In this document: piece by piece, positions 3,878 to 44,458 of the stretch
How positions within the stretch are numbered: the first letter of the stretch is position 1
How the letters are laid out: every line of letters starts with the position of its first letter
Assembly: GCA_048938895.1 (NCBI GenBank)
Contig: JBHLLU010000033.1
Span: forward strand, 1-45,015
Length of the DNA stretch: 45,015 bases
From: Promethearchaeota archaeon
GTDB taxonomy: Archaea; Asgardarchaeota; Lokiarchaeia; Sigyniarchaeales; SOKP01
Direction of reading: 5' to 3'
Notes under the pieces: model-generated
What the model was told of the DNA's origin: nothing
Database searches by the model: none
Seen by the model: only the letters and a program-made list of their open reading frames with translations
Made by a program: the position numbers and the translations under genes

Positions 3878-4549
3878 TTGATTTATATGGTACAGCTTGA
3901 TGAAAAAGAAATAAGAAAATTGAGTATTAATGAACTTACTCATTTGTTTATGGATATAATAAATGAGCAGAACTTAATACTTATTGAAGGTATTGAACAT
4001 CTTGTAGAAGAAAATTTTGAAAATTTTGAACAAAATCTACAATATGTAATAGACACTAATACAGAAGTCAAAATCAAGAAGATATTTGAATCAAAAATTT
4101 TTAAGTCAAAATTAATGTTTTCAAAGGCAGATCGATTAAAACTCTTTAATAAAATAAATGACATTAAAAATATCGGGGAATTCTTAGCAAATAAAATGCT
4201 TCTCTATAGAGTGGTGTTTCCTGATGAAGAATTTAAATTACAAATTAAGAGTATTCTTAAATCTTTGAGATCAATTTCAAGCAAAATATCTGAAGCTGTT
4301 AAACTAATAGGATCTGATTTAGGTAAAGCCCATGATATTTGTGAGAAAATAAAAGATGAAAGACGTGAAATGAGAAAAGAACAATGGCAACTTCTAAACA
4401 AATTATATAATTATGATATGGATTATCTTAGCAGGACCTTCTTATATTTAAAAGAATTAATCGAAGATATTATGATGCTAGCAGATCATATTAAAAATTT
4501 CTCTGAATATATACAGTTTCTAGCAACTAAATATCTAATTTTCGATTAA
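3878..4549 (+). CDS. DUF47/PhoU-like phosphate transport regulator, divergent paralog
   Basis: All-helical 223 aa with DRLKLFNKINDI and LIEDIMMLADHIKN matching the DUF47 repeat pattern; directly upstream of PiT; alternative ATG at 3887. Confidence 0.7.
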   Translation: MIYMVQLDEKEIRKLSINELTHLFMDIINEQNLILIEGIEHLVEENFENFEQNLQYVIDTNTEVKIKKIFESKIFKSKLMFSKADRLKLFNKINDIKNIGEFLANKMLLYRVVFPDEEFKLQIKSILKSLRSISSKISEAVKLIGSDLGKAHDICEKIKDERREMRKEQWQLLNKLYNYDMDYLSRTFLYLKELIEDIMMLADHIKNFSEYIQFLATKYLIFD

Positions 4550-4571
4550 AAATAAATCGCACTGATTCAAT

Positions 4572-5609
4572 ATGGCTGATGAGCTTAATGTAGTCCTGAT
4601 TGTAATCCTAATTGTCATGGCGGTTGGACTCGCCTTCTCGATCGGAGCAAACGACGAGACTTTATCATCCTTGATAGGTGCGGGTGTTCTTAAATTCAAA
4701 ATAGCATTGATTTTAGGAGGCACAGCAATAGGAGCAGGAATGATTCTTTTTAGTGGGGGGTTTGTTCCGGAAACGGTTGGAAAAAGTCTTTTAGGAAAGG
4801 GATTGGAAGAAAAATACACTAATTATATGCTCTTAGCTGTACTGATAAGTAGTATTATTTGGTTAGTAATAGGTAGTTTTGCAGGAATTCCTCTGAGTAG
4901 TACTCACTCTTTAATTGGAAGCATTTTTGGGGTGGTTTTAGTATATGCGATATTACAAGGGGGGATTAATATTAATACTGCTTTTAATAATGATAAGTTA
5001 AGAGACGTTGTTCTAGGATGGTTTATATCTCCAATATCCGGGTTATTAGTTACATATTTTCTTTTTAAACTGAGTGCTAAACTTCTGCTATCTCGGTTGA
5101 GAGGGTTAGATCAAATCGAAAAATCTGAAAAAACCTTTAAGTGGTTTTTGTTAATTGCTGTATTATTTGCTGAAATGTGGGTAGGGGCGAATTCAGGAGA
5201 AGCATTAGGGATACTTTTAGGCCTTAGAGAAAATAGTTCAATTGACTTTACTCAATACTTTATGTTTGCTATTATATGTGCAATTTTCGCTTTTTTAGGC
5301 ATTTATTTTGCTGCTCGATATGTTATTAGAAATTTAGCTTCCCACATGATCAGTACAAGACCTAGTGAAGGGTTTATTATTCAAATTAGTTCTGCAATTA
5401 TTCTGATGATTGCAACCTTATGGGCTCTCCCGATTTCACACTCCCATGTAATTGTCTTTTGTATCATCGGAATGAGCCTTGCCCAAAAGAAAGAAGTGGA
5501 TTATAAAGGATTAAGTAAAATGGCTGCATATTGGTTTCTTACATTTCCAATAGCCGCCCTATTAGCAGGTTTTATCTATTATATTTTGAGATTATTTGGA
5601 TTATCATGA
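4572..5609 (+). CDS. pitA: inorganic phosphate transporter (PiT/PHO4 family)
   Basis: GAND and PLSSTH in the N-half, GANS and PISHSH in the C-half; multi-TM; flanked by DUF47 genes. Confidence 0.88.
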   Translation: MADELNVVLIVILIVMAVGLAFSIGANDETLSSLIGAGVLKFKIALILGGTAIGAGMILFSGGFVPETVGKSLLGKGLEEKYTNYMLLAVLISSIIWLVIGSFAGIPLSSTHSLIGSIFGVVLVYAILQGGININTAFNNDKLRDVVLGWFISPISGLLVTYFLFKLSAKLLLSRLRGLDQIEKSEKTFKWFLLIAVLFAEMWVGANSGEALGILLGLRENSSIDFTQYFMFAIICAIFAFLGIYFAARYVIRNLASHMISTRPSEGFIIQISSAIILMIATLWALPISHSHVIVFCIIGMSLAQKKEVDYKGLSKMAAYWFLTFPIAALLAGFIYYILRLFGLS

Positions 5610-5618
5610 TTAGTAGAA

Positions 5619-5645
5619 ATATATATAATATATATAACTATATAG
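5619..5645. promoter_or_regulatory. ATATATA-ATATATA-CTATATAG array (9/10-bp period)
   Basis: Units start at 5619, 5628 and 5638 upstream of the second DUF47 gene. Confidence 0.55.
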
Positions 5646-5677
5646 TGTTTATAACAGATGAATAAGAGGTTAAAAAT

Positions 5678-6346
5678 ATGGGATCATTAATTGAGTATCT
5701 GAAAAGAGAAACAGCCGTCAATGCTTTAGGAAAATCCGTAAAACATGCGCAAATAGTACAAGAGTGCATAAAGTATCTAGATCTTGGCTTACAAACATTA
5801 TTAAAAGAAAAAGACGTTGAACAATCACATGAACTCTTCCAAAAAGTGGATAATTTAGAAAGAGATGCAGATACATTAAGAAGAGAAATTTTAAAAGACA
5901 TTTCTAGAGGAGAATTAAATCCTAGTGTAAGACAGAATTTATCTCATCTAATCAAAAGAATGGATGATGTTGCTAATTGCGGTACAGGTGTTGCTCGGAG
6001 AATAAACACAATCCCGTTGATATTTTGGGAACAAAGTAGTGATGAAACTGTTGAAATTATTTTAGAAATGATTAAAACCACGGTTGAATGTGTTCAATTT
6101 CTTGATAAAATTGTACTTGATCTACTCGAAGAACGAAAACATATTAAAGAATATGCCCAGCAGATAAATCAGTTTGAACACAAAATAGATTTACTTAACA
6201 TAAAATTAAGGAAAAATCTTCAAGAAACAGATTATAGAGTGAATTACTTTACCATCTTCACAGCAGGAAGCGTGTTCGACATTTTAGAAGCAATTTCGGA
6301 TTCAATTGAAGAAGTAGCAGATTATATTATGCAAATCACACTTTAA
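5678..6346 (+). CDS. DUF47 family phosphate transport regulator
   Basis: LERDADTLRR, MDDVAN, FEHKID and ISDSIEEVAD motifs. Confidence 0.88.
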   Translation: MGSLIEYLKRETAVNALGKSVKHAQIVQECIKYLDLGLQTLLKEKDVEQSHELFQKVDNLERDADTLRREILKDISRGELNPSVRQNLSHLIKRMDDVANCGTGVARRINTIPLIFWEQSSDETVEIILEMIKTTVECVQFLDKIVLDLLEERKHIKEYAQQINQFEHKIDLLNIKLRKNLQETDYRVNYFTIFTAGSVFDILEAISDSIEEVADYIMQITL

Positions 6347-6351
6347 ACTTC

Positions 6352-7356
6352 TTAAACTAAATTATTTATTATAATTTCTGAGATATCTCCAGCGTATTCA
6401 CCTGTTCGTCTAATACTTTCAATAATATATCCAATTGCAATTGATGTTTCTGGATTATCAGTTGAGTTAAGGCTGATTTTTTCAGTAGCTTGAATTAGAT
6501 TATCTATCAATTCTATGTTTTCATTAGCCAGATTGATATTTTTCTGAAGCCAGGCATCTAGGCTCTTGTTTAAAAGTCCCAATGATACTTCACTTGCATT
6601 TGAAATACCATCTAATAGATCTCTCTCAACTTTTTTATGATCTATTAATATTGTATTCCTAGCAATTCGAACTGCATGGTCTGCCGTTCTTTCTAAGAAC
6701 CTGCTAATTTGTTGATAGTGACTTGCTTGTTCTAGCGTAATCCCCAACTTTTGACATAGAATAATGTCTCTTAGTACGATATGGGATTGACGCCCAACAA
6801 GCCAATGTAATCTATCTACGTCATCATCTCTTTTAATTACTTCTTCTGCTAAATTATGATCACCAGTTTCCAGAGCCCTAATAGCATCCTCATGCATACC
6901 TTGAACGAGAATATACATTCGCCTTATAGTTTTTTCAAAGGGCATCTCCCTAGGGTTGACTAGATCTTTAATAAGGATATAGTTGTTAGATTCCTCGACA
7001 ATTTCTGGACCTATTGCGATTTGGGTGAAAGATGTTACACAATCTCTGATATAAGCTTCAAATTTCCTACTTGATTTAATCTCAATTTTAGAAAAACCCA
7101 TAATATATGCTCCAATTAAGATCCGAAATAAAAAATTCCCATCTTTAATATCATCCACATCTATTTCTTTTGTTTTTATTACTTTTTCAGAGTCTATTTG
7201 TGGAGTTATTAATAAATTTCCGTCTGGCTGGCTCAAAATTCCTAATGTATCATTTTTTTCAACACCATACTTATCAATCCAGACTTTTGGTAAACTTATG
7301 ATGAATGAACTTCCACCCGTTTTCTGAACCTTTCTTGTTTCTATATGGAATGTCAT
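6352..7356 (-). CDS. phoU: archaeal phosphate uptake regulator (AbrB-like N-terminal DNA-binding domain + two PhoU domains)
   Basis: ETRKVQKTGGSSFIISLPKVW AbrB-like start; DDDVDRL, LERTADH and ESIRRTGEY PhoU motifs; ATG 7356 preferred over TTG 7365. Confidence 0.92.
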   Translation of the reverse strand: MTFHIETRKVQKTGGSSFIISLPKVWIDKYGVEKNDTLGILSQPDGNLLITPQIDSEKVIKTKEIDVDDIKDGNFLFRILIGAYIMGFSKIEIKSSRKFEAYIRDCVTSFTQIAIGPEIVEESNNYILIKDLVNPREMPFEKTIRRMYILVQGMHEDAIRALETGDHNLAEEVIKRDDDVDRLHWLVGRQSHIVLRDIILCQKLGITLEQASHYQQISRFLERTADHAVRIARNTILIDHKKVERDLLDGISNASEVSLGLLNKSLDAWLQKNINLANENIELIDNLIQATEKISLNSTDNPETSIAIGYIIESIRRTGEYAGDISEIIINNLV

Positions 7357-7386
7357 AAAAAGCAACTTTTACAAAAAATACTTAAT

Positions 7387-7442
7387 CTATATATAAAATA
7401 ATTTAACCATATATTTTAAATAATTACTATATATTCTATATA
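7387..7442. promoter_or_regulatory. CTATATA box cluster upstream of phoU
   Basis: CTATATA at 7387, 7427 and 7436 (last two 9 bp apart), CCATATA at 7407. Confidence 0.55.
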
Positions 7443-7496
7443 AATTATCTTGGTTGTTTTAAAAAAATAGTGGTGAATGCATTTCAAAATTGGTTA

Positions 7497-8177
7497 TTAT
7501 CTCTTTGCCACAGTTAACATTATGATATAATCTGCTACATCTTCAGCATTATCAGTAACCGCTTCTAATGTTGAGATGCAATTATGAATTTCAATAGCAC
7601 TAAATGGATTTATATTTGGATTATTTGAAACAAGTATCCTATTTATACCATGACGTAAATCATCACATTGATGTTCAAGTATATTTACTTGTTCCCCTAA
7701 TTGATGTATTTCTTCTTCGTCGGCAGTTAGTAACTTATTTACCATAATATTTACTTTTTTAACGGCATCAACAGAAATTCTAGCCATTTCTAAAAACTTT
7801 TTATGAACATCTTCTTCTAATTTCATAAAATCAGGATGATTCATATAGATAAATATTCTAGCTCCTGCATTAGCTGCATTTGCAATGTCATCAATTCTTT
7901 GAGTTAAGTGTATTAGATTTTCGCGTATTGTTGGGTTAATCTTTGCTTTTGAAATCATATTTAAAATATTTCGTCTAATAACATCAGCTTGGTGTTCTAG
8001 TTCATCCACTCTGAAAAAAACTTTTAACGCGAGATCTATATTCCTTTCATCAAGAAGGTATGACACTGCTTTTTCAAATTCAACAACACATTCAAGTACT
8101 TTTTGCATATGGACTAATGTTTTATTTATGGCACTCTCTTCATTACGATTCTTAAACCATTCGTATAGAGAACTCAT
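7497..8177 (-). CDS. DUF47 family phosphate transport regulator
   Basis: LEHQADVIRR, IDDIAN, LEHQCD and VTDNAEDVAD motifs; paralog of 5678-6346. Confidence 0.88.
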   Translation of the reverse strand: MSSLYEWFKNRNEESAINKTLVHMQKVLECVVEFEKAVSYLLDERNIDLALKVFFRVDELEHQADVIRRNILNMISKAKINPTIRENLIHLTQRIDDIANAANAGARIFIYMNHPDFMKLEEDVHKKFLEMARISVDAVKKVNIMVNKLLTADEEEIHQLGEQVNILEHQCDDLRHGINRILVSNNPNINPFSAIEIHNCISTLEAVTDNAEDVADYIIMLTVAKR

Positions 8178-8215: not shown

Positions 8216-9439
8216 TTATTCTAATTTTAATACTTCTTTTATATATTTTTTACCAGGATGCTTAAAAATAATCCCTAATTCCTTAGGAAAATATATTGTC
8301 ACTTCTGAATTTTCCACAAATGAAGTGTGGGCTTCACTTGTCGCTGGGATTGAAACAATTATAATCTTCTCTACGTCATTTATTTTAATGGAAACTTCAA
8401 ATCTATAAAAAACACCCATAAATTTGCGTCGAATTATTTTCCCACGCATGGCATTTTTCTTATCCCTTGTTCGATCACCAAGTCTTATCTTAACATGATT
8501 TGCTCTAACTACTAATAATATTTTATCCCCATGTTCAATACTACGATAAACATCTTCCCTGACATAAGCAGCAAACATATATTTAAAACCAATATCAATC
8601 GGCATTGGAATTGATCCTTCCTGAATTTGAGCAAAAAATTTGTCACCTTGTTTTGATTTTCTATGTATGTCCCACGTCGGCTCTTTATTTTTTATACATA
8701 TACCTTCAAAATAATTTATTTCACTCATAAAGTAAGCTACAAAAAGGTTAAGTGGTTGATAGTAGATTTCATAAGGTGATCCAATTTGAATTATTTTTCC
8801 TTCATTCATAACAGCTATTCGGTCAGCTACCATCATAGCCTCCTGCTCTTCGTTTGTAACATGTATTACAGTTAACTTCAATTCCTTAGACTTTGCCATC
8901 TGAAGTAAATCTCTCCTTAAGCTCATTCTTAGACCTGCATCAAGCGCCTTTAAGGGTTCATCAAGGATAAGCAGTTTTGTTTGTTCTAAATTCAATAAAG
9001 CTCTACATAAAGCCACTCTTTGCTTCATCCCTCCACTTAATTCCTCTGGAACTGCGTCATTTCTCCCTGTTAGGAGTGTCATCATCAAAACCTGCTCTAC
9101 GAGTGTTTGAGTCATCGTAGAGTCACGTGCATGAACACGACCGCTATATGCGATATTTTCTACTATGTTCATGTGGGGAAATAAAGCATAATTTTCAAAC
9201 ATAAATCCTAAGTTTCTTTCTCCAGAACTCTGGTTAGTCACATTTTCATCGTTAAAAGTAATAACTCCTGAATCTGATTTTAGTAGACCTGCAATAATTT
9301 TCAATAAAGTTGTCTTTCCCGCACCTGTAGGGCCAAGAATAATAAAATATTCCTCATCTTTTATATCAAGTGATATATTATCAAGTGCTTTAAAATTTCT
9401 AAAAGATTTCGAAACATTTTCCAATTTTATATTGACCAT
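8216..9439 (-). CDS. ABC importer ATP-binding subunit A (PotA/CysA/MalK-like with C-terminal OB/TOBE-type region)
   Basis: GPTGAGKT, LSGGM and LLILDEP present; Q-loop Q>E (MFENY) and switch H>N (HVTNE). Confidence 0.92.
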   Translation of the reverse strand: MVNIKLENVSKSFRNFKALDNISLDIKDEEYFIILGPTGAGKTTLLKIIAGLLKSDSGVITFNDENVTNQSSGERNLGFMFENYALFPHMNIVENIAYSGRVHARDSTMTQTLVEQVLMMTLLTGRNDAVPEELSGGMKQRVALCRALLNLEQTKLLILDEPLKALDAGLRMSLRRDLLQMAKSKELKLTVIHVTNEEQEAMMVADRIAVMNEGKIIQIGSPYEIYYQPLNLFVAYFMSEINYFEGICIKNKEPTWDIHRKSKQGDKFFAQIQEGSIPMPIDIGFKYMFAAYVREDVYRSIEHGDKILLVVRANHVKIRLGDRTRDKKNAMRGKIIRRKFMGVFYRFEVSIKINDVEKIIIVSIPATSEAHTSFVENSEVTIYFPKELGIIFKHPGKKYIKEVLKLE

Positions 9440-9455
9440 GGAACATTCACCATTT

Positions 9456-10601
9456 CTATGTTAAAGATAATTCTTTCAAAAGATTTTCGGGAGTTTTAAA
9501 TACATGTATATCATCTATATGGATTCCAATGAGAAGATCTTCACCAGGAATAAAATTTTCTTCAAAATTTCCAGGTTTTATTGACAAAAACCTATCGCCA
9601 TTATCCAGCATTAGATAAAATCTCTTTGTGGCCCCTATAAACCTTGATGCTTCAAGATTAGCTTGAAATGTCTGCATCTTAGTCCAATCATAGGGACTAT
9701 TTTCAAAATCATAATCTAAAGGAAATAAATAAACATCTTCAAATCGAAAAGAGATTATAATATTATCATCTAAGGTAAATTTATTATTGAAATTATTACA
9801 ATCTATTTTTGGTCCTCCTAAACGGATCCAAATATTTATTTTATTACCTTCAAGTAATTTCAATACAAAACCTTGCAAAAAATTTGTTTCTCCTAAGAAA
9901 TTGGCAACAAAAATACTATTTGGATTTTCATATAATTCATAAGGAGTTCCCATTTGAAGAATATGTCCTGATCTCATAATTATAATCTTATCTGCTATTG
10001 CCATAGCTTCTTCTTGATTGTGGGTCACATGAATTGCTGTAAGCTTTAGATCCTTGATCAAATTTCTCAATTCATGTCGAAAGACCTTAGATACTTTTGG
10101 ATCTAATGAACCTAGCGGTTCATCCATTATCAGTATTTTTGCTCCTGTGGCAATGGCTCTTGCGATCCCCAGTTTCTGTAAACCAGGATTTCCAAAAATA
10201 CTGGGATATTCGTCAGCATAATCTAATAGTCCAACTGTATTTAATGCTTTTTCTGCTTCCTTGATAATATACTCATCATTATATCCACGCATTTCTAAAC
10301 CAAAAGTTACATTCTCCCAAACAGATAAATGGTCAAAAATTTCAAAGTGCTGAAAAATGAAACCCATATCTCTATCTTCTGGAGGAATTCCTTCGATATC
10401 CTCACCATCGATTAAAACTTTTCCTTTAGTGGGCTTTTCAAGCCCGGCTATCATTCTTAGAGTAGTTGTTTTTCCACAACCAGTTGGTCCGAGTAGAAAA
10501 ACATAATCTCCATCATCGATCTTCAATGAAATATTATCTACGGCAAGTACTTTTCCTTCTTTAAATGTTTTTGTAACATGGAATAATTCAATAGATGGCA
10601 T
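9456..10601 (-). CDS. ABC importer ATP-binding subunit B
   Basis: GPTGCGKT, IFQH, ILIMDEP and VTHN intact; signature motif replaced by FGNPG. Confidence 0.92.
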   Translation of the reverse strand: MPSIELFHVTKTFKEGKVLAVDNISLKIDDGDYVFLLGPTGCGKTTTLRMIAGLEKPTKGKVLIDGEDIEGIPPEDRDMGFIFQHFEIFDHLSVWENVTFGLEMRGYNDEYIIKEAEKALNTVGLLDYADEYPSIFGNPGLQKLGIARAIATGAKILIMDEPLGSLDPKVSKVFRHELRNLIKDLKLTAIHVTHNQEEAMAIADKIIIMRSGHILQMGTPYELYENPNSIFVANFLGETNFLQGFVLKLLEGNKINIWIRLGGPKIDCNNFNNKFTLDDNIIISFRFEDVYLFPLDYDFENSPYDWTKMQTFQANLEASRFIGATKRFYLMLDNGDRFLSIKPGNFEENFIPGEDLLIGIHIDDIHVFKTPENLLKELSLT

Positions 10602-10603
10602 GT

Positions 10604-12265
10604 TTACGTACCTCTCTTTTTTGTAACCATCCTTAAAGCAAAAATCAAGAAAACACTAAAAATAATTACGATAAAACTTGCAAAAACGGCACTAGGGAAA
10701 GCATTAGATTCAACCCAGTCTACTATTAATACAGGTACGGTTCGAATATTCCCCATAACTACAATTGTAGCCCCTGTTTCTCCTAAAGAGCGTGTAAATA
10801 CCATAATACACCCCGCAATTATTCCTTGTTTTATATTAGGAAGCGTTATTCTTCTGAATACTGTTAGATTAGATGCACCTAAGGTTCTAGCTGCCTCTTC
10901 CACTCCTACATTGGTGTTTTCCAAGACTCCGATGATTGGTCGTACCATATAAGGAAATGTGAAGGCTATATGAACAAAGAGAATCATATAAAATCCTGAT
11001 TGAAAAAGCCTTAAACCTACAGGTCCCCAAAACATAAAGGTTGCAAAACCTAAAGCTGCGGAAGGGATTGCTATTGGAATGTCAAGGATTGTGTCTAAAA
11101 AGGTAATAAATCTTCCCCACTTACGTTTCGTTATAATAAACGCAAAAGGTATGCCAAAAGCCAGATTTATCACGACTGCTAGCACACCTATTTGTATTGA
11201 ATTTATAAAACTTACATATAAATATGCCCACTTATAATCTTGACCCAAAAATAATTCTCCTACAAAGTTTTCCCCAATGATTTGAGTTGTAATATAAAAT
11301 GCGGGAATTAATATTAAAACCAGTAATATTGCTAATGCCATTATATCTCGAAAGTAGCGTAAAAATCTATTACTGAAAAACCTTTCAATTCTAGGCCACA
11401 CTGATTTTACAGGGAATCCCGTTTTTCGAGTTAAAAATTTTATTGAAAATAATAAAATTAATGAGATTAATATCAAAATTCCTGCTAATAACGAAGCTGA
11501 AGGTAATTCTAATTGCCTCCTAAAACCTACAATCAGGATAGGTGCTGTTTCTACTAATCCTGATATGATAATAGTTGCACCTGTTTCACCAAGACTTCTG
11601 GTAAAAGCAAGGATCGATCCTGCGATGATTCCTTCCTTCATCATCGGGAGAGTTATCGTTCTAAAAACTGTGAATCCAGAAGCTCCCAAAGTTCTGGCAG
11701 CATCCTCATATAATGTATTTACCTTCTCAAGAACAATTTTCATATTACGAACGATATAGGGAAAAGTAAAGATGATATGTCCAAGAATTATAAGAGAAAA
11801 TCCTGGTTCAACTCCAAATAAGCCCCAAAATAGCAATATTGAAAAACCCAAAGCACTTGTAGGAACCGCCATTGGTAAATCCACAAGTACATTAAGTAAT
11901 TTTTTACCTCTAAAATTGTATCGAGTCAATATTATGGATATTGGAAGTGCAATAATAATATCGATACTTACAGCTAAAGCCGCAATAGAAAAGGAATAAC
12001 CAAGGGAACTCAAGATATTTCTCCATTGGAGATTACCTATTAAATTATCATTAAAAACATCTTTATTTATCGCAGGAATACTTAGAAAAATTGTAGAAAA
12101 GATGTTAATTATGGGGCCAATAACTACTAGAGCAAAAAAAATTAATGTTAAAGCATCTAAACTCTTTCTATAAACAGGTTTCGAGAAAAACTTATCAATC
12201 TTTAAGCTAACGGATAAATTCCCTTTGGTCTCAGTTGTTTCCATAGTTAGTCTATTTTTTCTCAC
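10604..12265 (-). CDS. ABC importer permease with two fused BPD_transp_1 domains (CysT/CysW/ModB-like)
   Basis: Internal duplication: DLPMAVP..EDAARTLGAS..FTRSLGETGAT and DIPIAIP..EEAARTLGAS..FTRSLGETGAT. Confidence 0.92.
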   Translation of the reverse strand: MRKNRLTMETTETKGNLSVSLKIDKFFSKPVYRKSLDALTLIFFALVVIGPIINIFSTIFLSIPAINKDVFNDNLIGNLQWRNILSSLGYSFSIAALAVSIDIIIALPISIILTRYNFRGKKLLNVLVDLPMAVPTSALGFSILLFWGLFGVEPGFSLIILGHIIFTFPYIVRNMKIVLEKVNTLYEDAARTLGASGFTVFRTITLPMMKEGIIAGSILAFTRSLGETGATIIISGLVETAPILIVGFRRQLELPSASLLAGILILISLILLFSIKFLTRKTGFPVKSVWPRIERFFSNRFLRYFRDIMALAILLVLILIPAFYITTQIIGENFVGELFLGQDYKWAYLYVSFINSIQIGVLAVVINLAFGIPFAFIITKRKWGRFITFLDTILDIPIAIPSAALGFATFMFWGPVGLRLFQSGFYMILFVHIAFTFPYMVRPIIGVLENTNVGVEEAARTLGASNLTVFRRITLPNIKQGIIAGCIMVFTRSLGETGATIVVMGNIRTVPVLIVDWVESNAFPSAVFASFIVIIFSVFLIFALRMVTKKRGT

Positions 12266-12293: not shown

Positions 12294-13418
12294 TTACGCT
12301 GTAGCTTTACAAAGTAACCATAGATCGGGTATTTTTAATAGTACTTCTTCATCCGAAGGAGTTTTTAATTCAGGAATGTTCAAATTTAAAGCAATCCCAT
12401 TTGTTTCATAATTAAATACTTTAGGATCTAATGGAATTGAAGAATTTATTGGTCTAAATCCATATTCAAGAGCAGATTCCACAGTTTCAGTCTTCTGAAG
12501 AAATGCTAAAAAAGCATTTGCTACTTCTCTTTGATATTCATTAATCCAATCTGCATTTAAAATACAAAATGGATGATCACTGTATAGTGTACCTTCCTCT
12601 GGATATATTGCTATTACTTTTCCTCCTGCAGAAGTACTTGAAATATCTCTTATAAGATTCTCATATAATAAAGCAATATTTAGAGCACTAGGACCTTCAT
12701 TTTTCATATAACGAGCTAAAAAACCAGTCGATGTTCCGTATGTTATGGCACTCGACTCAAATTCTCTTAACCATTGTTGATTACTCGAATTGGTAAGATC
12801 TAACATTGTTAAGTTTTCTGAAGGGATCCCTGAAGCAGCTGATAACGCCATTATTACACTCATAAATCCAGAATTGGACAATCGTGGATCCGTATGTGCC
12901 ATTCTAATATTCACATTAGGGTTTAAAACTAAGTTATGTATATCTGAAAAACCTTTAATATTATGAGTTTGGTTAAATGCTTCCCAGGTGGCTATCACTA
13001 TTGGTGAATAAATAATTTTAACAGCAGCGCTAATATTTACAATTTCTTCATTATTTTTTGTCAAATCTGCCCATTTAGAATTCAATAACGGCATCCAAAT
13101 TGAACTTGCTGGGCTCCAAATTGTTGGGGTTATCTCCCTATTCAAAATCCCGATTATAGAATTTGCTGAACCATATGGATGCATATCAATTGATATAGGT
13201 TCATGAGGATGAGTATTTTTCCACTCATTCATAAAGTTTGTATAAGCAATTGTCATCCAACTCGCTTTTTCAGAGCTGTATATAATTGTTATATGAGTTT
13301 TTTCGCCTTTACTACTTATTATAATATCCGTAGAAAAACTTCCTATAAGAAAACCCAATACAAAAATTATAATTATTGCGCTTTTATTACGTTTCTTAAC
13401 TTTACTGATTCGGCTCAT
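12294..13418 (-). CDS. membrane-anchored ABC substrate-binding protein (PBP2 fold, not PstS-like)
   Basis: Basic N-terminus plus TM anchor; YSSEK, WSPASS, YSPIVIA, TDPRLSNSG, YEN and IYPEEGTLYSDHP motifs. Confidence 0.8.
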   Translation of the reverse strand: MSRISKVKKRNKSAIIIIFVLGFLIGSFSTDIIISSKGEKTHITIIYSSEKASWMTIAYTNFMNEWKNTHPHEPISIDMHPYGSANSIIGILNREITPTIWSPASSIWMPLLNSKWADLTKNNEEIVNISAAVKIIYSPIVIATWEAFNQTHNIKGFSDIHNLVLNPNVNIRMAHTDPRLSNSGFMSVIMALSAASGIPSENLTMLDLTNSSNQQWLREFESSAITYGTSTGFLARYMKNEGPSALNIALLYENLIRDISSTSAGGKVIAIYPEEGTLYSDHPFCILNADWINEYQREVANAFLAFLQKTETVESALEYGFRPINSSIPLDPKVFNYETNGIALNLNIPELKTPSDEEVLLKIPDLWLLCKATA

Positions 13419-13677: not shown

Positions 13678-15255
13678 TTAAATTAGATTTTGACCCACCA
13701 CACTCTTATGAGGCGTTTTACCTAACATTTTTACAAGAGTTGGGACGATGTCCGTTATTTTACAGAAAGCAATATGCTTGGAAGGAATCTCCAACGATCC
13801 TCCAATAACCAAAGGGACTTTCATGCATTTTTTAAGCCCCAGATCGTGATTATAAAGGTTTTTATTCCCCTTTTTACCATTTTTTAGATTATAAACTATT
13901 GAACCATCATTGCTCAAAATAATATCTGAACTTCTTGGATTTTTGAAATGACGAGGAATTAAATCGATGTACATTGGAAAATCAAGGTTATAAGTAGCTG
14001 CTAGCCATTCATATGTTGAATGAAATTTATTATCTAGCAATTTAGACGCATTTTCGTCATTCAAATAATTAAAAACATCAACTTTATCGTTTTCAATGAC
14101 ATATTTGGTTCTAAAATCGTTACCATTACCCGAATATTCAATTTTACCTGAAATTATTTTATTTGAATCATTAAATTTTCTTTTTAAATAAATTATACCC
14201 TTATCAATTGTGTTTTTTTCATCTCTGTAGTACATTAAATGGCTTCCTTCAATTTTAAATAGCTCTTGTAAAAGATTTATCTTTTTTGGACCATAACTTT
14301 TCAATTCATTAGTAGTGGGATGAGACCATCCGAATTTACTCATAGGGTGAATAGAACCCTTGAAATTAAAGAATCCAATTCCATCATATTTGGAAATATT
14401 CATATTCCCCTTAATATTTCTCTGGGGATGATAATGAGTGAGTTTATTTGGTTTAAAGAAATTGTATATTTTTCCATATTTATCAGCTTTATAATTTCCA
14501 TGATCAGATGTTATTACTATTGCTGTATCATCTAAATATCCCATTTTAGATAGACTATCAATTAACCAACCAATCACTTTATCAATATGCAAAAGATTTA
14601 ATTTGTAGAGGTGTGATGAAGATCCAAAAATATGTAAAAGGATATCGGTTGTTGGAAACCACAGAAGAGATGCTATGGGAGGTTCAGAGTTTTTAAAATA
14701 TTTCTTGGGTCTTTTAAAAGTATCAAGTAGTTTTTCCACTAGACCTGTATCGGCCCTTGCCATCATTTTTTTTATATTTCTCGAATAATATAGAGTGATA
14801 TAAAACATAGCAAGTTTAGTTTTCCTCTCAGGAAAAAAATATTCTGCTCCTCTATTGATAAATTGGGCTATACTAGCTGTATTTCCAGAATCCTTGACCA
14901 TTTCAAGAATAGTTTTGCATCTGCTTTCAAGATCCTCATTGAGTTTATATATTTGCAGATTTCTAGCAGTATAATCTCTTAGAAATGGAGGTGCTATATC
15001 TCGTCCCATCCAATTCATTAAAGGTATACCATGACAGAATTCTTTACGATAATCACCGGTATAGGTTCCTGTAAGTAATGATGCTTGGGTTGGATATGTT
15101 ATTGGAGGGAAGTCCGTTATACAATCTCTGGAGTAAATTCCATTTTCCATCAACTTTTTTATGTTTGGAAGCCATCCCTTATCTACATAGTCGAATAGAT
15201 GGTCAGATCTTACATTATCAATGATACAGTAGATAACTCTGTTTATCTTATTCAT
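13678..15255 (-). CDS. alkaline phosphatase superfamily hydrolase (nucleotide pyrophosphatase/type I phosphodiesterase-like), cytoplasmic
   Basis: IIDNVR, PPITYP (Thr nucleophile position), DILLH, TSDHG and YNHD; no signal peptide. Confidence 0.85.
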   Translation of the reverse strand: MNKINRVIYCIIDNVRSDHLFDYVDKGWLPNIKKLMENGIYSRDCITDFPPITYPTQASLLTGTYTGDYRKEFCHGIPLMNWMGRDIAPPFLRDYTARNLQIYKLNEDLESRCKTILEMVKDSGNTASIAQFINRGAEYFFPERKTKLAMFYITLYYSRNIKKMMARADTGLVEKLLDTFKRPKKYFKNSEPPIASLLWFPTTDILLHIFGSSSHLYKLNLLHIDKVIGWLIDSLSKMGYLDDTAIVITSDHGNYKADKYGKIYNFFKPNKLTHYHPQRNIKGNMNISKYDGIGFFNFKGSIHPMSKFGWSHPTTNELKSYGPKKINLLQELFKIEGSHLMYYRDEKNTIDKGIIYLKRKFNDSNKIISGKIEYSGNGNDFRTKYVIENDKVDVFNYLNDENASKLLDNKFHSTYEWLAATYNLDFPMYIDLIPRHFKNPRSSDIILSNDGSIVYNLKNGKKGNKNLYNHDLGLKKCMKVPLVIGGSLEIPSKHIAFCKITDIVPTLVKMLGKTPHKSVVGQNLI

Positions 15256-17197: not shown

Positions 17198-20143
17198 TTG
17201 CCAAGTTCAAGAAAAGGGAGAAATAAGGAAGCGGAAGATAAAACCCAAACTTCATTATTTTCATTTGTAGAGGAAGATAAGGAGAAAAAAGAATCCAAAG
17301 AGGAACCTAAGAAAGTGGAAATGAAGAAGGTGAAAGAAGAAAAGTCATTGGAATCATTAACAAAAGCTAAAGAAGATAAACCAATGAAAACACCACCTAA
17401 GGAAAGTTCAATTACAAATGAGATATGTCAAATATCCTTCTTCAAAGAAAATAAAGAGCCATTTGGATTAAGGAAAACAGATGTAGAATTAGAAAAAGTA
17501 CTTAGAGAAGGAGTGACCTCTAAATATATTCGTTATTTGATGAAGAAGGGGGAAATAGTGGAGAACTTAGACAGAGGATTATTGCTAGATGTTGATTATG
17601 ATGGTGGACAAAACAAGGCGTTCTGCAAGTTTTATGATTTAGATTCTGAAGAAATAAAGATTTGGATTGATACTACAGGTCATGAACCTTATTGTTTAAG
17701 TAAAGAGCCTATATCCGAGTTAGAGAGCTTATCCTTTACTGATAAAAATAAAGTGAAAAAGAAATTAACAAATTATGAAGGTTTTAACAGATTTGAAGAA
17801 ATTAAGCGTTTTGATCTTCTGAAGGATGAAGAAATCGAAATGACTAAGATCTATGGGAAAACTCCAACGAACATTGGAGGTTCGGGGATAAATATTCGAA
17901 ATATTTTAAGTGAAAATGAAAAAAAGGCCTGGGAAGCAGATATTCGATACCATCTAAATTATATATTTGATACTCAAATAATCCCAGGGTTAATTTATTC
18001 TATAGAAAATGGAAATCTTAAAAAAATAAACTTCGAGAAATCTGATGAATCTACTAAAAAGATGGCTGGTGAATTACGAACTCTATTTCAAAATGAAGCA
18101 CCAGAAGTTCAAGAATTTTCTGAGAAATTTCTAGATATCTTTATTACACCTATCCCCGATGTCAAAAGGGTGGCAATGGATATCGAAGTTAAAATAGGTG
18201 AACGGGATTATAAAATTCCTGATCCCCACTTAGCCCAGCAAGAAGTTATAAGTGTATCATTTGTGGCTAGTGATGGATTACAAGAGGTGCTTATGCTTGA
18301 GCGAGAAGAATATTCCTACGACAAGCTTTATGAAGAGTTTCCCTCAGATGCAAGGGTAATTCTCTTTGAATCTGAAAAAGATTTAATAACGGAGACATTT
18401 CGGCTTTTGTGGCAATATCCAGTCGTCATAACTTTTAACGGAGACAATTTTGACTTAAACTATTTATTTCATAGGGCGCAAAAGTTAAAGATTAATAAAA
18501 ATTTAAATCCTATTCATGTCAAAAGGGGATTTGGAATCCTGTCAAAAGCGGAATGCGATTTAAGAAGAGGAATTCATATAGATGTATTTAATTTGTTCTT
18601 TAATCGTAGTATTTCAGGCTATGCATTTGGAGGTGTATATGAGAGTGCTTCACTAAATGCTATTAGTGCTGCGTTATTAGGTGAAGAAAAATATCAGCAT
18701 GAAGAAATTATCCATGAAATGGAATTTGACAAGCTCTCTTGGTATAATCTAAAAGATTCCATTTTAACACTAGACTTAACAAGGTTTAACAATTCGCTTG
18801 TATGGAATTTAATAATACTACTTTGTCGAATAACAAAGATGCCTGTTCATGATATGGTTCGACGACAAATTTCGACTTGGATCCAAAATATTTTTTATTT
18901 TGAACATCGTAGAAAAGAATATCTAATTCCTCGTAGATCTGAAATAGCCGAATTAAAAAGAGGAGGTATTCTGTCATCTAAAGCAGGAGATGACAAGTTT
19001 ATGGGTGCTTACGTAATACCCCCGGTTCCTGGAATTCATTATGATGTAGTAGTAATGGATTTTGCATCACTATATCCCTCAATAATTAAGGAATATAATC
19101 TTTCATATGAAACTGTATTATGTCCTCATAAAGATGATGAAGATAATCTGGTGAAAGGAACTCCTTATCATATATGTACCCAGAAAATGGGTATCTTTGC
19201 TTATGTGGTAGGTTTTTTCCGTGATATTAGAGTTAAATATTTTAAACCGAAATCTGGAGACAAAAGCTTATCAGAAAAACAACGTAGTTATTACCAGACG
19301 ATTCAACAAGCTCTAAAAGTATTTATTAACGGCTCCTATGGTGTTTTTGGGTCACAAAACTTTCCACTTTTTTGTTTACCTGTAGCAGAAAGCACAACCG
19401 GAATCGGTCAATATTCCATAAAACAAACGATTAAAAAAGCTGAAGAATTGGGAGTGGAAGTTTTGTACGGAGATACTGATTCAGTTTTTCTTAAAAATCC
19501 AACAAAAGATCAAATGAAAGAAATCTCTGATTGGAGTAAGAAGGAACTCGATTTAGATTTAGAAGAAGAAAAAACTTATCAATTCTTAGCTCTCTCAGAT
19601 AGAAAGAAAAATTATATTGGTATTTACAAGGATACGAAATATACAGATATTAAAGGATTGGTAGCTAAAAAGAAAAACACACCCGAATTTATTAAAAAAG
19701 TATTCAGTGACTTGATTGAGATCTTAAAAAACATTACAAATGACGAGGAATTTACTAAAGCTCGTAATCAAATTATAGAAATAGTTAAAACTAACCTTAG
19801 AAAAATCGGAAAACCAAACACGTTCACGTTAGAGGATTATGCAATAAACATAGGACTCCAAAAAGATTTAAAAAACTATACAAAAGTGATTCCTCAGCAT
19901 GTGAGGGCTGCGATTGAACTAAAAGAAGCTACAGGTAAAGTGTATCAAAAGGGAGAAACAATTAGTTTTATAAAGAGTAAAGGACCAATAGGAGCAAAAG
20001 CAATTGAATTAGCTAAACTTCAAGATATAGATACCAAAAAATACAAGGAACTGTTAACTTCTGCTCTAGAACAAGTTTTTGATGCTCTTGGTATTACTTT
20101 CGAAGAAATTAAGGGAATTAAAAAGATGGATGCATTTTTCTGA
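17198..20143 (+). CDS. polB1: family B DNA polymerase, PolB1 type
   Basis: Exo DIE, FNGDNFD and YNLKD; Pol DFASLYPSII, KVFINGSYG and YGDTDS; GHEPYC and WEADIRY B1-type N-terminal motifs. Confidence 0.95.
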   Translation: MPSSRKGRNKEAEDKTQTSLFSFVEEDKEKKESKEEPKKVEMKKVKEEKSLESLTKAKEDKPMKTPPKESSITNEICQISFFKENKEPFGLRKTDVELEKVLREGVTSKYIRYLMKKGEIVENLDRGLLLDVDYDGGQNKAFCKFYDLDSEEIKIWIDTTGHEPYCLSKEPISELESLSFTDKNKVKKKLTNYEGFNRFEEIKRFDLLKDEEIEMTKIYGKTPTNIGGSGINIRNILSENEKKAWEADIRYHLNYIFDTQIIPGLIYSIENGNLKKINFEKSDESTKKMAGELRTLFQNEAPEVQEFSEKFLDIFITPIPDVKRVAMDIEVKIGERDYKIPDPHLAQQEVISVSFVASDGLQEVLMLEREEYSYDKLYEEFPSDARVILFESEKDLITETFRLLWQYPVVITFNGDNFDLNYLFHRAQKLKINKNLNPIHVKRGFGILSKAECDLRRGIHIDVFNLFFNRSISGYAFGGVYESASLNAISAALLGEEKYQHEEIIHEMEFDKLSWYNLKDSILTLDLTRFNNSLVWNLIILLCRITKMPVHDMVRRQISTWIQNIFYFEHRRKEYLIPRRSEIAELKRGGILSSKAGDDKFMGAYVIPPVPGIHYDVVVMDFASLYPSIIKEYNLSYETVLCPHKDDEDNLVKGTPYHICTQKMGIFAYVVGFFRDIRVKYFKPKSGDKSLSEKQRSYYQTIQQALKVFINGSYGVFGSQNFPLFCLPVAESTTGIGQYSIKQTIKKAEELGVEVLYGDTDSVFLKNPTKDQMKEISDWSKKELDLDLEEEKTYQFLALSDRKKNYIGIYKDTKYTDIKGLVAKKKNTPEFIKKVFSDLIEILKNITNDEEFTKARNQIIEIVKTNLRKIGKPNTFTLEDYAINIGLQKDLKNYTKVIPQHVRAAIELKEATGKVYQKGETISFIKSKGPIGAKAIELAKLQDIDTKKYKELLTSALEQVFDALGITFEEIKGIKKMDAFF

Positions 20144-43018: not shown

Positions 43019-44458
43019 TTATTTCTTCTTGTGTTTAGGTTCAATCTTCTTGATTATTATTGATTCAGCATGAATCTTACAATTCTTTAGGATTACTTTG
43101 AATCCGCCAGCCCCACCAACTCCAGGAATCGTCATACCAACAGTTCCCATAGGAACCATCGCACCTTCCTCTTCCCATTCTTCTTCTTCCTCTTCCACAC
43201 CACCCACAGCGGCTTTGTATTCTTCAGTCTCTATGATTGGGTGTTGAACCTTTTCTAACCAGGCAGGTAATTCACTTAATTCAGCGACATCTTCTTCTGT
43301 TGGAATTTTATCTCGTATATCTTCTGGAAGAAGATCATATACACGATCTTTAACCGTCTTTCCCATCCATACAATTGTATAGATTCCACCATCCAATCCA
43401 GCACTTATCCCATCATATTTTTGATATTTAGGCGATATAATGTATTGTATGCTTATACCATTAAATCCGGGCATTTGTTTTCCTCCGCCTGTTTGGTTGG
43501 CCATTGCACTGAAGGGCAAACCATTAATAGCAACTCCATCATGATTTCTGTCAATAATACCATGACCTGCTCCAGTTTCTGGAATAAAGAAATCTATTGC
43601 TTCAAAGCAACCGCAACTGGTATGTGGATATTCCATTCCGCTATAAAGATAAATTCTATCGATTTCTCCAAGTGAACGCTTTTTAATCATTTCATTAACA
43701 CCCGTAAACTCACCTGCTAATTCGTTTAAACACTCACCCATGGGAACTTCAAAAAGTGGCCCCTTCGGGTCTACACGAGCAGCAGCTCTCGCATCAAACC
43801 AAGAGATAGATCCACATAAGCTCATACGATTTGGAGTAATACAACAGGCATGCGTTGGTGCAAAAGATTGGCACAACACGCAGCCGTAGAACATATCTAC
43901 ATCTTCATCATTAATACTTCGAGCTCGCTCATCTCGCTTGTTGTAAATCTCTAAAGCAAAATTGTAAGGCTTTTCAATTTCTTTAGGATCTGTTATTAAA
44001 GTAACTTGGCATTTTTTAATAATTGGGAGTTCTGCCTTATAAAGTCTAATAAGGACAGTACCAAGCATTTCAAGAGTGTTAAATCCTTTTTCTATTAAGT
44101 TCTTTGAAAGCCTCATCCAGTTGGTATAGCGTTGGTTCAAGTGCATAATCCCATTTACGAAATTGCAGAACTCATGGACTCTGCGCTCAAACACAGCTTC
44201 CAGGTCTTCCTCTAGTTCTGGTCCTGCAACTTCTACCAAAATCCCTATAGGGTAGCGTTCACCCTCTTTCATATCTTTAATGTCAGGACCTATTATAGTA
44301 ATCTTTCCATCTTCTATTTCCTTGTCTGGTTTCACGCGCACAAGTTCAAAATGCTTCTCTATTTTAGGACCACCAAGTTCTACATACATTTGGTTTCCTC
44401 TAATACGTTCTCCTTCATATACAGGTCCCACATCGAAAGGTAAATCAGAAAAACTCAT
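43019..44458 (-). CDS. cdhC: CO dehydrogenase/acetyl-CoA synthase beta subunit
   Basis: PVYEGERIR, FYGCVLCQSFAPTHAC and PHTSCGCFE A-cluster ligands; acidic C-terminal linker. Confidence 0.96.
   Translation of the reverse strand: MSFSDLPFDVGPVYEGERIRGNQMYVELGGPKIEKHFELVRVKPDKEIEDGKITIIGPDIKDMKEGERYPIGILVEVAGPELEEDLEAVFERRVHEFCNFVNGIMHLNQRYTNWMRLSKNLIEKGFNTLEMLGTVLIRLYKAELPIIKKCQVTLITDPKEIEKPYNFALEIYNKRDERARSINDEDVDMFYGCVLCQSFAPTHACCITPNRMSLCGSISWFDARAAARVDPKGPLFEVPMGECLNELAGEFTGVNEMIKKRSLGEIDRIYLYSGMEYPHTSCGCFEAIDFFIPETGAGHGIIDRNHDGVAINGLPFSAMANQTGGGKQMPGFNGISIQYIISPKYQKYDGISAGLDGGIYTIVWMGKTVKDRVYDLLPEDIRDKIPTEEDVAELSELPAWLEKVQHPIIETEEYKAAVGGVEEEEEEWEEEGAMVPMGTVGMTIPGVGGAGGFKVILKNCKIHAESIIIKKIEPKHKKK

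Follow-up and report, generated by a model that had tools for sequence, protein, structure and literature searches.

A predicted one-site ATPase heterodimer in a binding-protein-dependent type I ABC importer of Asgard archaea and Bathyarchaeia

The nucleotide-binding domains (NBDs) of ATP-binding cassette (ABC) transporters dimerize head to tail, an established architecture in which each ATP site combines the core motifs of one subunit with the signature motif of its partner. According to passages in three papers on heterodimeric exporters, one of the two composite sites of these transporters is degenerate and presumably one hydrolysis event occurs per cycle (PMC3971661, PMC7756269, PMC7756565). 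For importers, a passage in PMC11466899 describes one degenerate ATP site in the fused ATPases RbsA/NupO, whereas the literature that we searched described no degenerate site for type I importers of the CysA/MalK/PotA type. Here we analyse 45,015 nucleotides of DNA from a Promethearchaeota archaeon (contig JBHLLU010000033.1 of assembly GCA_048938895.1, positions 1 to 45,015; hereafter the window), in which four minus-strand genes between positions 13418 and 8216 encode a binding-protein-dependent type I ABC importer made of a substrate-binding protein (SBP), a permease and two ATPases, B and A. We consider it likely that A and B, which are paralogous CysA/PotA/MalK-like proteins, operate as an obligate heterodimer with one catalytic site, a conclusion drawn from their sequence motifs and from the conservation of these motifs across archaeal lineages. 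Our literature search yielded no paper on this Asgard system, and none of relevance that links ABC transporters to DUF47 proteins, one of which is encoded next to the importer.

Motifs and composite sites of the two ATPases

ATPase A (407 amino acids, 8216 to 9439, minus strand) and ATPase B (381 amino acids, 9456 to 10601, minus strand) carry complementary deviations from the ABC consensus. In the translated open reading frame (ORF) of A, the Walker A motif GPTGAGKTT (residues 36-44), the signature LSGGM (residues 134-138), the Walker B motif LLILDEP and the D-loop LKALD are intact; the Q-loop reads FENY, with Glu in place of Gln (residues 81-84, window 9188-9199), and the switch region reads HVTNE, with Asn in place of His (residues 193-197, window 8849-8863). 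In B the catalytic core is intact, with Walker A GPTGCGKTT, Q-loop FQHF, Walker B ILIMDEP, D-loop LGSLD and switch HVTHN, and the signature is degenerate, its position being occupied by FGNPG (residues 136-140, window 10182-10196). When A and B are aligned with HMMER to solved archaeal MalK-type ATPases, the alignments are ungapped, and FGNPG coincides exactly with LSGGQ, FENY with FQNW and VTN with VTH. The motif states that an earlier note on this DNA had read for the two subunits, including replacement of the B signature without insertion or deletion, are thus borne out by the ORFs and by alignment to solved NBDs.

Both proteins belong to the ABC_tran family (PF00005; 105.3 bits for A and 98.2 bits for B against a Pfam cut-off of 25), and their closest NCBIfam and PDB matches are PhnT2, PotA, CysA, MalK and ModC, all of them far under the equivalog cut-offs. 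The nearest solved sequences in the PDB are motors of the MalK/PotA/CysA/ModC/FbpC type (E 1e-61 to 1e-42), and a TOBE_2 domain is seen in B only, at 20.3 bits and so below its Pfam cut-off of 21. Among 74 NBD hits in the window's own genome, A and B are the sole CysA/MalK-like soluble pair with a complementary pattern.

Because a head-to-tail dimer pairs the core of each subunit with the signature of the other, all of the deviations fall into the site composed of the A core and the B signature, and the site composed of the B core and the LSGGM of A is of consensus type, as the earlier note had deduced. The pair therefore has the arrangement of a degenerate-site heterodimer, with two different NBDs and non-consensus residues in a single composite site. 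Since A2 and B2 homodimers would each contain two defective sites, only the A/B combination would yield an intact one, and the earlier proposal of an obligate heterodimer holds by this motif logic. It is conceivable that A2 and B2 instead serve as alternative motors under different conditions, or that one of them serves another permease, a view for which the presence of two genes, and nothing more, speaks. As A2 would have two sites without Gln and His and B2 two sites without a signature, and as the genes are adjacent, 17 nucleotides apart, and co-inherited in every two-ATPase locus examined, we regard such homodimeric motors as very improbable.

In the mechanism that we propose for the A/B heterodimer, the fully canonical site formed by the B core and the LSGGM of A would hydrolyse ATP, the site formed by the A core and the B pseudo-signature would be catalytically dead, having lost its signature as well as the Gln of the Q-loop and the His of the switch, and one ATP would be spent per transport cycle. 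The dead site is nevertheless predicted to bind Mg-ATP, because in protein A of the window Walker A still has its Lys, Walker B its Asp-Glu and the A-loop its aromatic residue; by analogy with heterodimeric exporters (PMC3971661, PMC7756269, PMC7756565), it probably acts as a clasp, either stable or allosteric. What can be read directly from the DNA is the operon, the motifs and how these motifs are conserved and co-vary, and it is from these that we infer heterodimer formation, hydrolysis at a single site and nucleotide occupancy of the dead one.

Conservation across lineages and origin of the pair

The complementary pattern recurs in every locus set that we assembled. In a first, order-level set of 41 genomes, from which 20 loci were fetched, the Gln-to-Glu and His-to-Asn changes of A were found in 18/18 A-type proteins and a non-LSGG signature in 20/20 B-type proteins; after loci from a phylum search were added, the resulting 45 loci (L001-L045) gave 43/43 and 45/45, respectively, at the order level. 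Two of these loci, L019 and L020, contain only a B-type ORF in the fetched stretch, and the B match of L019 has an internal TAA. An independent search anchored on the SBP returned 79 loci, 73 of them with a full permease and 67 with two full ATPases; the remaining 6 of the 79, without a full permease, were left unscored, and L095 and L101 stop at a contig edge. The SBP-anchored loci span Promethearchaeota, Hel-, Heimdall-, Hod-, Borr-, Sif- and Sigyn-archaea and Bathyarchaeia, and they include L121, which is titled Candidatus Lokiarchaeum ossiferum, a cultured Asgard archaeon. Across the 67 two-ATPase loci of this search the B signature was non-LSGG in all 67, the A Q-loop residue was Glu in 62, Ala in 4 and Gln in 1, and the A switch residue was Asn in 58, Gln in 6 and His in 3, counts that describe breadth rather than statistics, as the locus sets overlap through a shared species collection and related genomes are not independent.

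Co-occurrence of both sets of substitutions in orthologues had been set beforehand as a refutation test of the earlier note, and they do co-occur, in the order-level loci as in the wider sets. Recent decay or an assembly artefact confined to the window's genome has next to no probability given these results, for dozens of genomes, drawn from Bathyarchaeia and several lineages of Asgard archaea, have the same states, and of the 70 two-ATPase operons in L001-L045 and the SBP-anchored set 69 have open frames, the exception being L120, whose A gene is split into two ORFs. Strain-specific decay is ruled out by the fixed states in orthologues (43/43 for A, 45/45 and 67/67 for B). We conclude from this distribution that the degenerate-site arrangement, as judged by its motifs, is ancient, being shared by Asgard lineages and Bathyarchaeia. 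The elements with which A would bind ATP are conserved as well: A has GxGK[ST] in 67/67 of the SBP-anchored two-ATPase loci, and an aromatic A-loop residue (Phe or Tyr) occupies the aligned column in 61/69 rows, with several others displaced by two residues.

More distant loci show how far the pattern can extend. Of 20 further loci fetched, 18 carry an SBP, a fused permease and two ATPases; L054 and L055 lack the operon and were left out of the motif table for this set. The 14 loci in which B precedes A have a B signature of LSxPxLQ or similar (LSGG in 0/14) and an A Q-loop residue that is Glu in 13 and Ala in one; the A switch residue is His in 6, Gln in 6 and Asn in 2, and the A Walker B motif ends in DEP in 9, DQP in 3 and DDP in 2. 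In L057 and L065, which come from one Asgard family, the Walker A Lys of A has been lost as well (GPTGAGPSE and GPSNGGPSF) alongside a DQP Walker B, and in these lineages the dead site, to judge from its residues, probably no longer binds nucleotide. This further decay is restricted to the site of A core and B signature; the site of B core and A signature is never affected.

Other loci serve as natural controls and suggest how the pair arose. Bathyarchaeial operons with a single ATPase, L136 and L143 (and L130, with a split ORF), are canonical throughout, with LSGGM, Q-loop Gln and switch His, and L126 is intermediate, having two ATPases of which B has the signature LSFGE and A keeps both Gln and His. 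In L058, L059, L062 and L064 the order of the ATPase genes is reversed and there is little or no degeneration, the A-like subunit having Gln and His and the B-like signature reading LSRGAQQK, LSGGMQQK or LSGGAIQK. Similar B-like proteins with the QQK ending are attributed by their source names to Thermoprotei, Nitrososphaeria and Methanobacteriota. In the origin that we propose, a single canonical ATPase gene would have been duplicated and its two copies would then have decayed in complementary fashion. The motif states of the loci indicate just such a series, from one canonical gene to a duplicated pair in which the signature alone is degraded, to complementary decay and to loss, at the same site, of Walker B and then Walker A residues. 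A quick maximum-likelihood tree of 70 NBDs separates this family of importer NBDs from generic relatives with a Shimodaira-Hasegawa approximate likelihood-ratio test (SH-aLRT) support of 100 and unites the A-types with Gln-to-Glu changes in one clade of 20 rows (SH-aLRT 95).

These comparisons also bear on whether the A-core site might turn over after all, with the Glu, Asn and pseudo-signature forming an unusual but active site in a two-ATP motor of altered kinetics. In its favour, A retains its Walker A Lys and Walker B Asp-Glu in the window and in most lineages. Moreover, the substituted residues are themselves conserved, as the A Q-loop Glu is in 62/67 loci and as the Pro of the B pseudo-signature is in a 14-row alignment, where it is invariant, which argues for constraint on these residues rather than for drift. 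On the other hand, the Gly-Gly of the signature is absent in 67/67, and passages in two papers on exporters treat substitutions equivalent to these as defining non-hydrolysing sites (PMC3971661, PMC7756269). At this same site, some lineages have in addition given up the Glu of Walker B (DDP, DQP) and even the Lys of Walker A, losses that are hard to reconcile with a catalytic role for the A-core site, and we consider a motor with two active sites quite unlikely.

Several observations nonetheless temper our preferred reading, in which A and B form an obligate heterodimer that has one catalytic site. Our case for the heterodimer, and for a dead site that is inactive, is built on sequence motifs; the Walker B Glu, which acts as catalytic base, survives in A here and in most lineages, so that some slow hydrolysis may persist at the dead site; and in the quick tree the B-types form two basal groups, with support of 80 and 85, and are not resolved as one clade.

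Operon, phosphate island and probable substrate

The genes of the importer belong to a tight operon on the minus strand with the order SBP, permease, B, A, DUF47, AbrB-PhoU. The SBP gene (12294 to 13418, minus strand) encodes a protein with an N-terminal membrane anchor or signal helix and a Pfam SBP_bac_11 match (E 7e-13), and the permease gene (10604 to 12265, minus strand) encodes a 553-amino-acid chain in which two stretches match BPD_transp_1 (PF00528). The two PF00528 domains, the EAA loops in both permease halves and the SBP_bac_11 gene upstream identify the system as a type I importer. The earlier note had spoken of a fused asymmetric permease; the fusion stands, with two domains in one chain, but asymmetry is an overstatement, as the halves are 43% identical and their EAA loops almost the same. 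Directly downstream of A lies a gene for a DUF47 / PhoU_div protein (7497 to 8177, minus strand; PF01865, E 6.7e-26), followed by one for an AbrB/MazE-PhoU fusion (6352 to 7365, minus strand; Pfam PhoU and the AbrB-like MazE_antitoxin), a putative phosphate-uptake regulator.

On either side of this operon are further genes related to phosphorus. A plus-strand group assigned by Pfam (3878 to 6346) encodes a DUF47 protein, a PiT (PHO4) phosphate transporter and a second DUF47 protein, and just upstream of the SBP gene there is a gene for an alkaline-phosphatase-superfamily phosphodiesterase or nucleotide pyrophosphatase (13678 to 15255, minus strand; Pfam Phosphodiest, E 5.3e-24). Window positions 3878-8177 hold three DUF47/PhoU_div paralogues and one AbrB-PhoU fusion within 4.3 kilobases, with a single PiT, an unusually high density of PhoU-superfamily genes around this transporter. 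In a congener, locus L066 (G024:C7:670000-689999, same genus), a complete pstS-pstC-pstA-pstB-phoU cluster and an AbrB-PhoU gene adjoin PiT/DUF47 and the ABC operon, making up one large phosphate island, and an ORF of 524 versus 525 amino acids occupies the position of the phosphodiesterase, a correspondence based on length and place alone. The remainder of the window is ordinary chromosome, with a family-B DNA polymerase gene (17198-20143, plus strand), the gene for the carbon monoxide dehydrogenase/acetyl-CoA synthase (CODH/ACS) beta subunit CdhC (43019-44458, minus strand), a major facilitator superfamily transporter gene and a radical S-adenosylmethionine protein gene.

The DUF47 / PhoU_div protein is likely an accessory or regulatory partner of the importer: in 56/73 of the SBP-anchored loci with a full permease, a DUF47 gene follows downstream in the same orientation. 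This linkage invites the interpretation that the dead site is mainly regulatory, sensing ATP/ADP or inorganic phosphate, or docking DUF47/PhoU, and thereby gating uptake, with clasping and energy saving secondary. That DUF47 is linked to the operon so tightly and widely, even to its single-ATPase versions, and that AbrB-PhoU regulators lie nearby, recurring beside the operon in several distant loci, would fit this interpretation. The same single-ATPase operons, however, argue in the other direction: a DUF47 gene also follows L136 and L143, in which the ATPase is canonical, and the role of DUF47 therefore needs no dead site. We consider a mainly regulatory dead site unlikely and retain the interpretation of one hydrolysing site and one nucleotide-binding clasp.

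As for the substrate, we somewhat favour phosphate or another phosphorus oxyanion, with DUF47 doing what PhoU does for Pst, because the operon is set among DUF47, AbrB-PhoU, PiT and phosphodiesterase genes and, in the congener, beside pst genes, and because the window's genome has neither PstC nor PstB above cut-off. The SBP has no NCBIfam match, and a PDB sequence search with it found nothing at E<=1. Its AlphaFold2 model has a predicted local distance difference test (pLDDT) score of 90.6; conserved loops of the SBP read SPAS, HTDPxLSNSG, YGxSTG and DHPF, and its Atlas matches are sulfate-SBP-like and Chloroflexota clusters. None of the parts reaches the cut-offs for a Pst system (PstC 87.5 against 196.45, PstB 128.1 against 343.2) or for PhnS2T2U2, a putative 2-aminoethylphosphonate transporter (PhnT2 281.8 for A and 271.9 for B against 457.7; PhnU2 110.1 against 593.25), and CysA scores about 230 against a cut-off of 502.

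A phosphorus substrate has evidence to contend with. The SBP belongs to SBP_bac_11 and is neither PstS-like nor a member of PBP_like_2, and the best fold matches of its model are the sulfate-binding proteins 5um2/1sbp, with a template-modelling (TM) score of only about 0.6-0.7, followed by PotF/D and AfuA at similar scores. The best NCBIfam matches of the permease are likewise sulfate (TIGR00969, 241.7 against a cut-off of 240) and molybdate (TIGR02141, 220.9 against 182.6) permeases, these scores being sums over its two domains. Nor do the data support the importer as a simple replacement for Pst. A genome-wide search of the window's genome, which is 98.7% complete, found no PstC or PstB above cut-off, and family-level counts alone had looked complementary; but among 400 genomes of the phylum, related ones not being independent, 58 have both B and PstC, 98 only B, 129 only PstC and 115 neither, and the presence of both systems in 58 speaks against simple replacement.

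The full picture of a new archaeal importer of phosphorus oxyanions analogous to Pst, assembled from Sbp/CysTW/CysA-like parts with DUF47, in which the dead site would be a nucleotide-occupied or DUF47-docked control site and one ATP per cycle would be spent under gating by phosphate or energy status, is one that we put forward tentatively and regard as doubtful in its entirety. If it were true, the system would be an adaptation by which energy-starved lineages among Asgard archaea and Bathyarchaeia save energy. Whatever its substrate, we draw attention to a conserved ABC system that is linked to DUF47 and located in phosphate islands.

Comparison with described transporters

The need for ATP and the equivalence of the two sites have been probed in importers that are homodimers, for example by mutagenesis of HisP (cited in a passage of PMC3971661). 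The system described here would instead offer a natural importer of the CysA/MalK type in which a single intact site has sufficed for a very long time, and its evolutionary series would allow motors with one site to be compared directly with two-site motors on one and the same permease scaffold. The MalK homodimer, too, has reportedly been used to ask about ATP need and site equivalence. The occurrence of the operon at L121, in a cultured Asgard archaeon, brings such experiments within reach.

In overall organization the locus resembles PstSCAB-PhoU, which likewise comprises an SBP, two permease domains, an ATPase and a PhoU-superfamily accessory gene and which, in the congener, lies in the same phosphate island. 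In contrast to Pst, its SBP is an Sbp-like SBP_bac_11 protein rather than a PBP_like_2 protein, and its parts all fall under the Pst family cut-offs. In its motor it is closest to MalK2, PotA2, CysA2, ModC2 and FbpC2, with which it probably has the NBD subfamily in common, next to a permease and an SBP of the same kind; those motors, however, consist of identical subunits with two consensus sites, whereas here a duplicated pair contains one site that is predicted to be dead.

Among importers with a degenerate site, RbsA/NupO (CUT2-type) differ in having two NBDs in one chain, in their NBD and transmembrane domain (TMD) families and in the absence of the Walker A Lys from the second NBD. Importers of the LivF/LivG type (HAAT) are similar to the present system in using two different soluble ATPases, although these belong to a different subfamily and work with LivH/M-like permeases. 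Complementary deviation is perhaps general for LivFG. The window's own genome (G000) contains a LivF/LivG-like pair with complementary deviations beside LivH/M-like permeases (contig C76:19486-20929; L148:5487-6930, minus strand), in which the LivF-like protein has a Q-loop Glu and a switch Gln and the LivG-like protein has the signature LPHGD. The earlier note's view that such asymmetry is unusual in type I importers therefore agrees with the literature for the CysA/MalK/PotA type but is too broad for importers at large, given RbsA/NupO in print (in a passage of PMC11466899) and the LivF/LivG-like pair here. The literature may underestimate how common degenerate sites are among importers.

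The closest parallel at the NBD level is with heterodimeric exporters. As in TM287/288, TmrAB, BmrCD, TAP1/2 and CFTR, changes in the core of one NBD are matched by a signature change in the other, at the same site. The system falls outside the TM287/288 family, however, and is exporter-like at the NBD level only: those exporters are type IV transporters with TMD fused to NBD, whereas here the NBDs are separate, soluble CysA/MalK-like proteins that accompany a BPD_transp_1 permease and an SBP. The substitutions differ as well, for exporters commonly change the Walker B Glu to Asp, while A of the importer keeps this Glu and instead has the Q-loop Gln changed to Glu and the switch His to Asn. 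The window's genome also encodes nine adjacent pairs of proteins of about 600 amino acids with C-terminal NBDs (contigs C113, C11, C151, C170, C4, C53, C59, C99 and C9) that display the classic exporter-type pattern, one partner having DD[AS] at Walker B, together with a non-His switch in four pairs, and the other having the signature LSxGQ; from their length and C-terminal NBDs, we infer that these pairs are exporters. By the motifs of its two ATPases, the importer described here carries the degenerate-site principle that is standard in heterodimeric exporters into a binding-protein-dependent type I importer.

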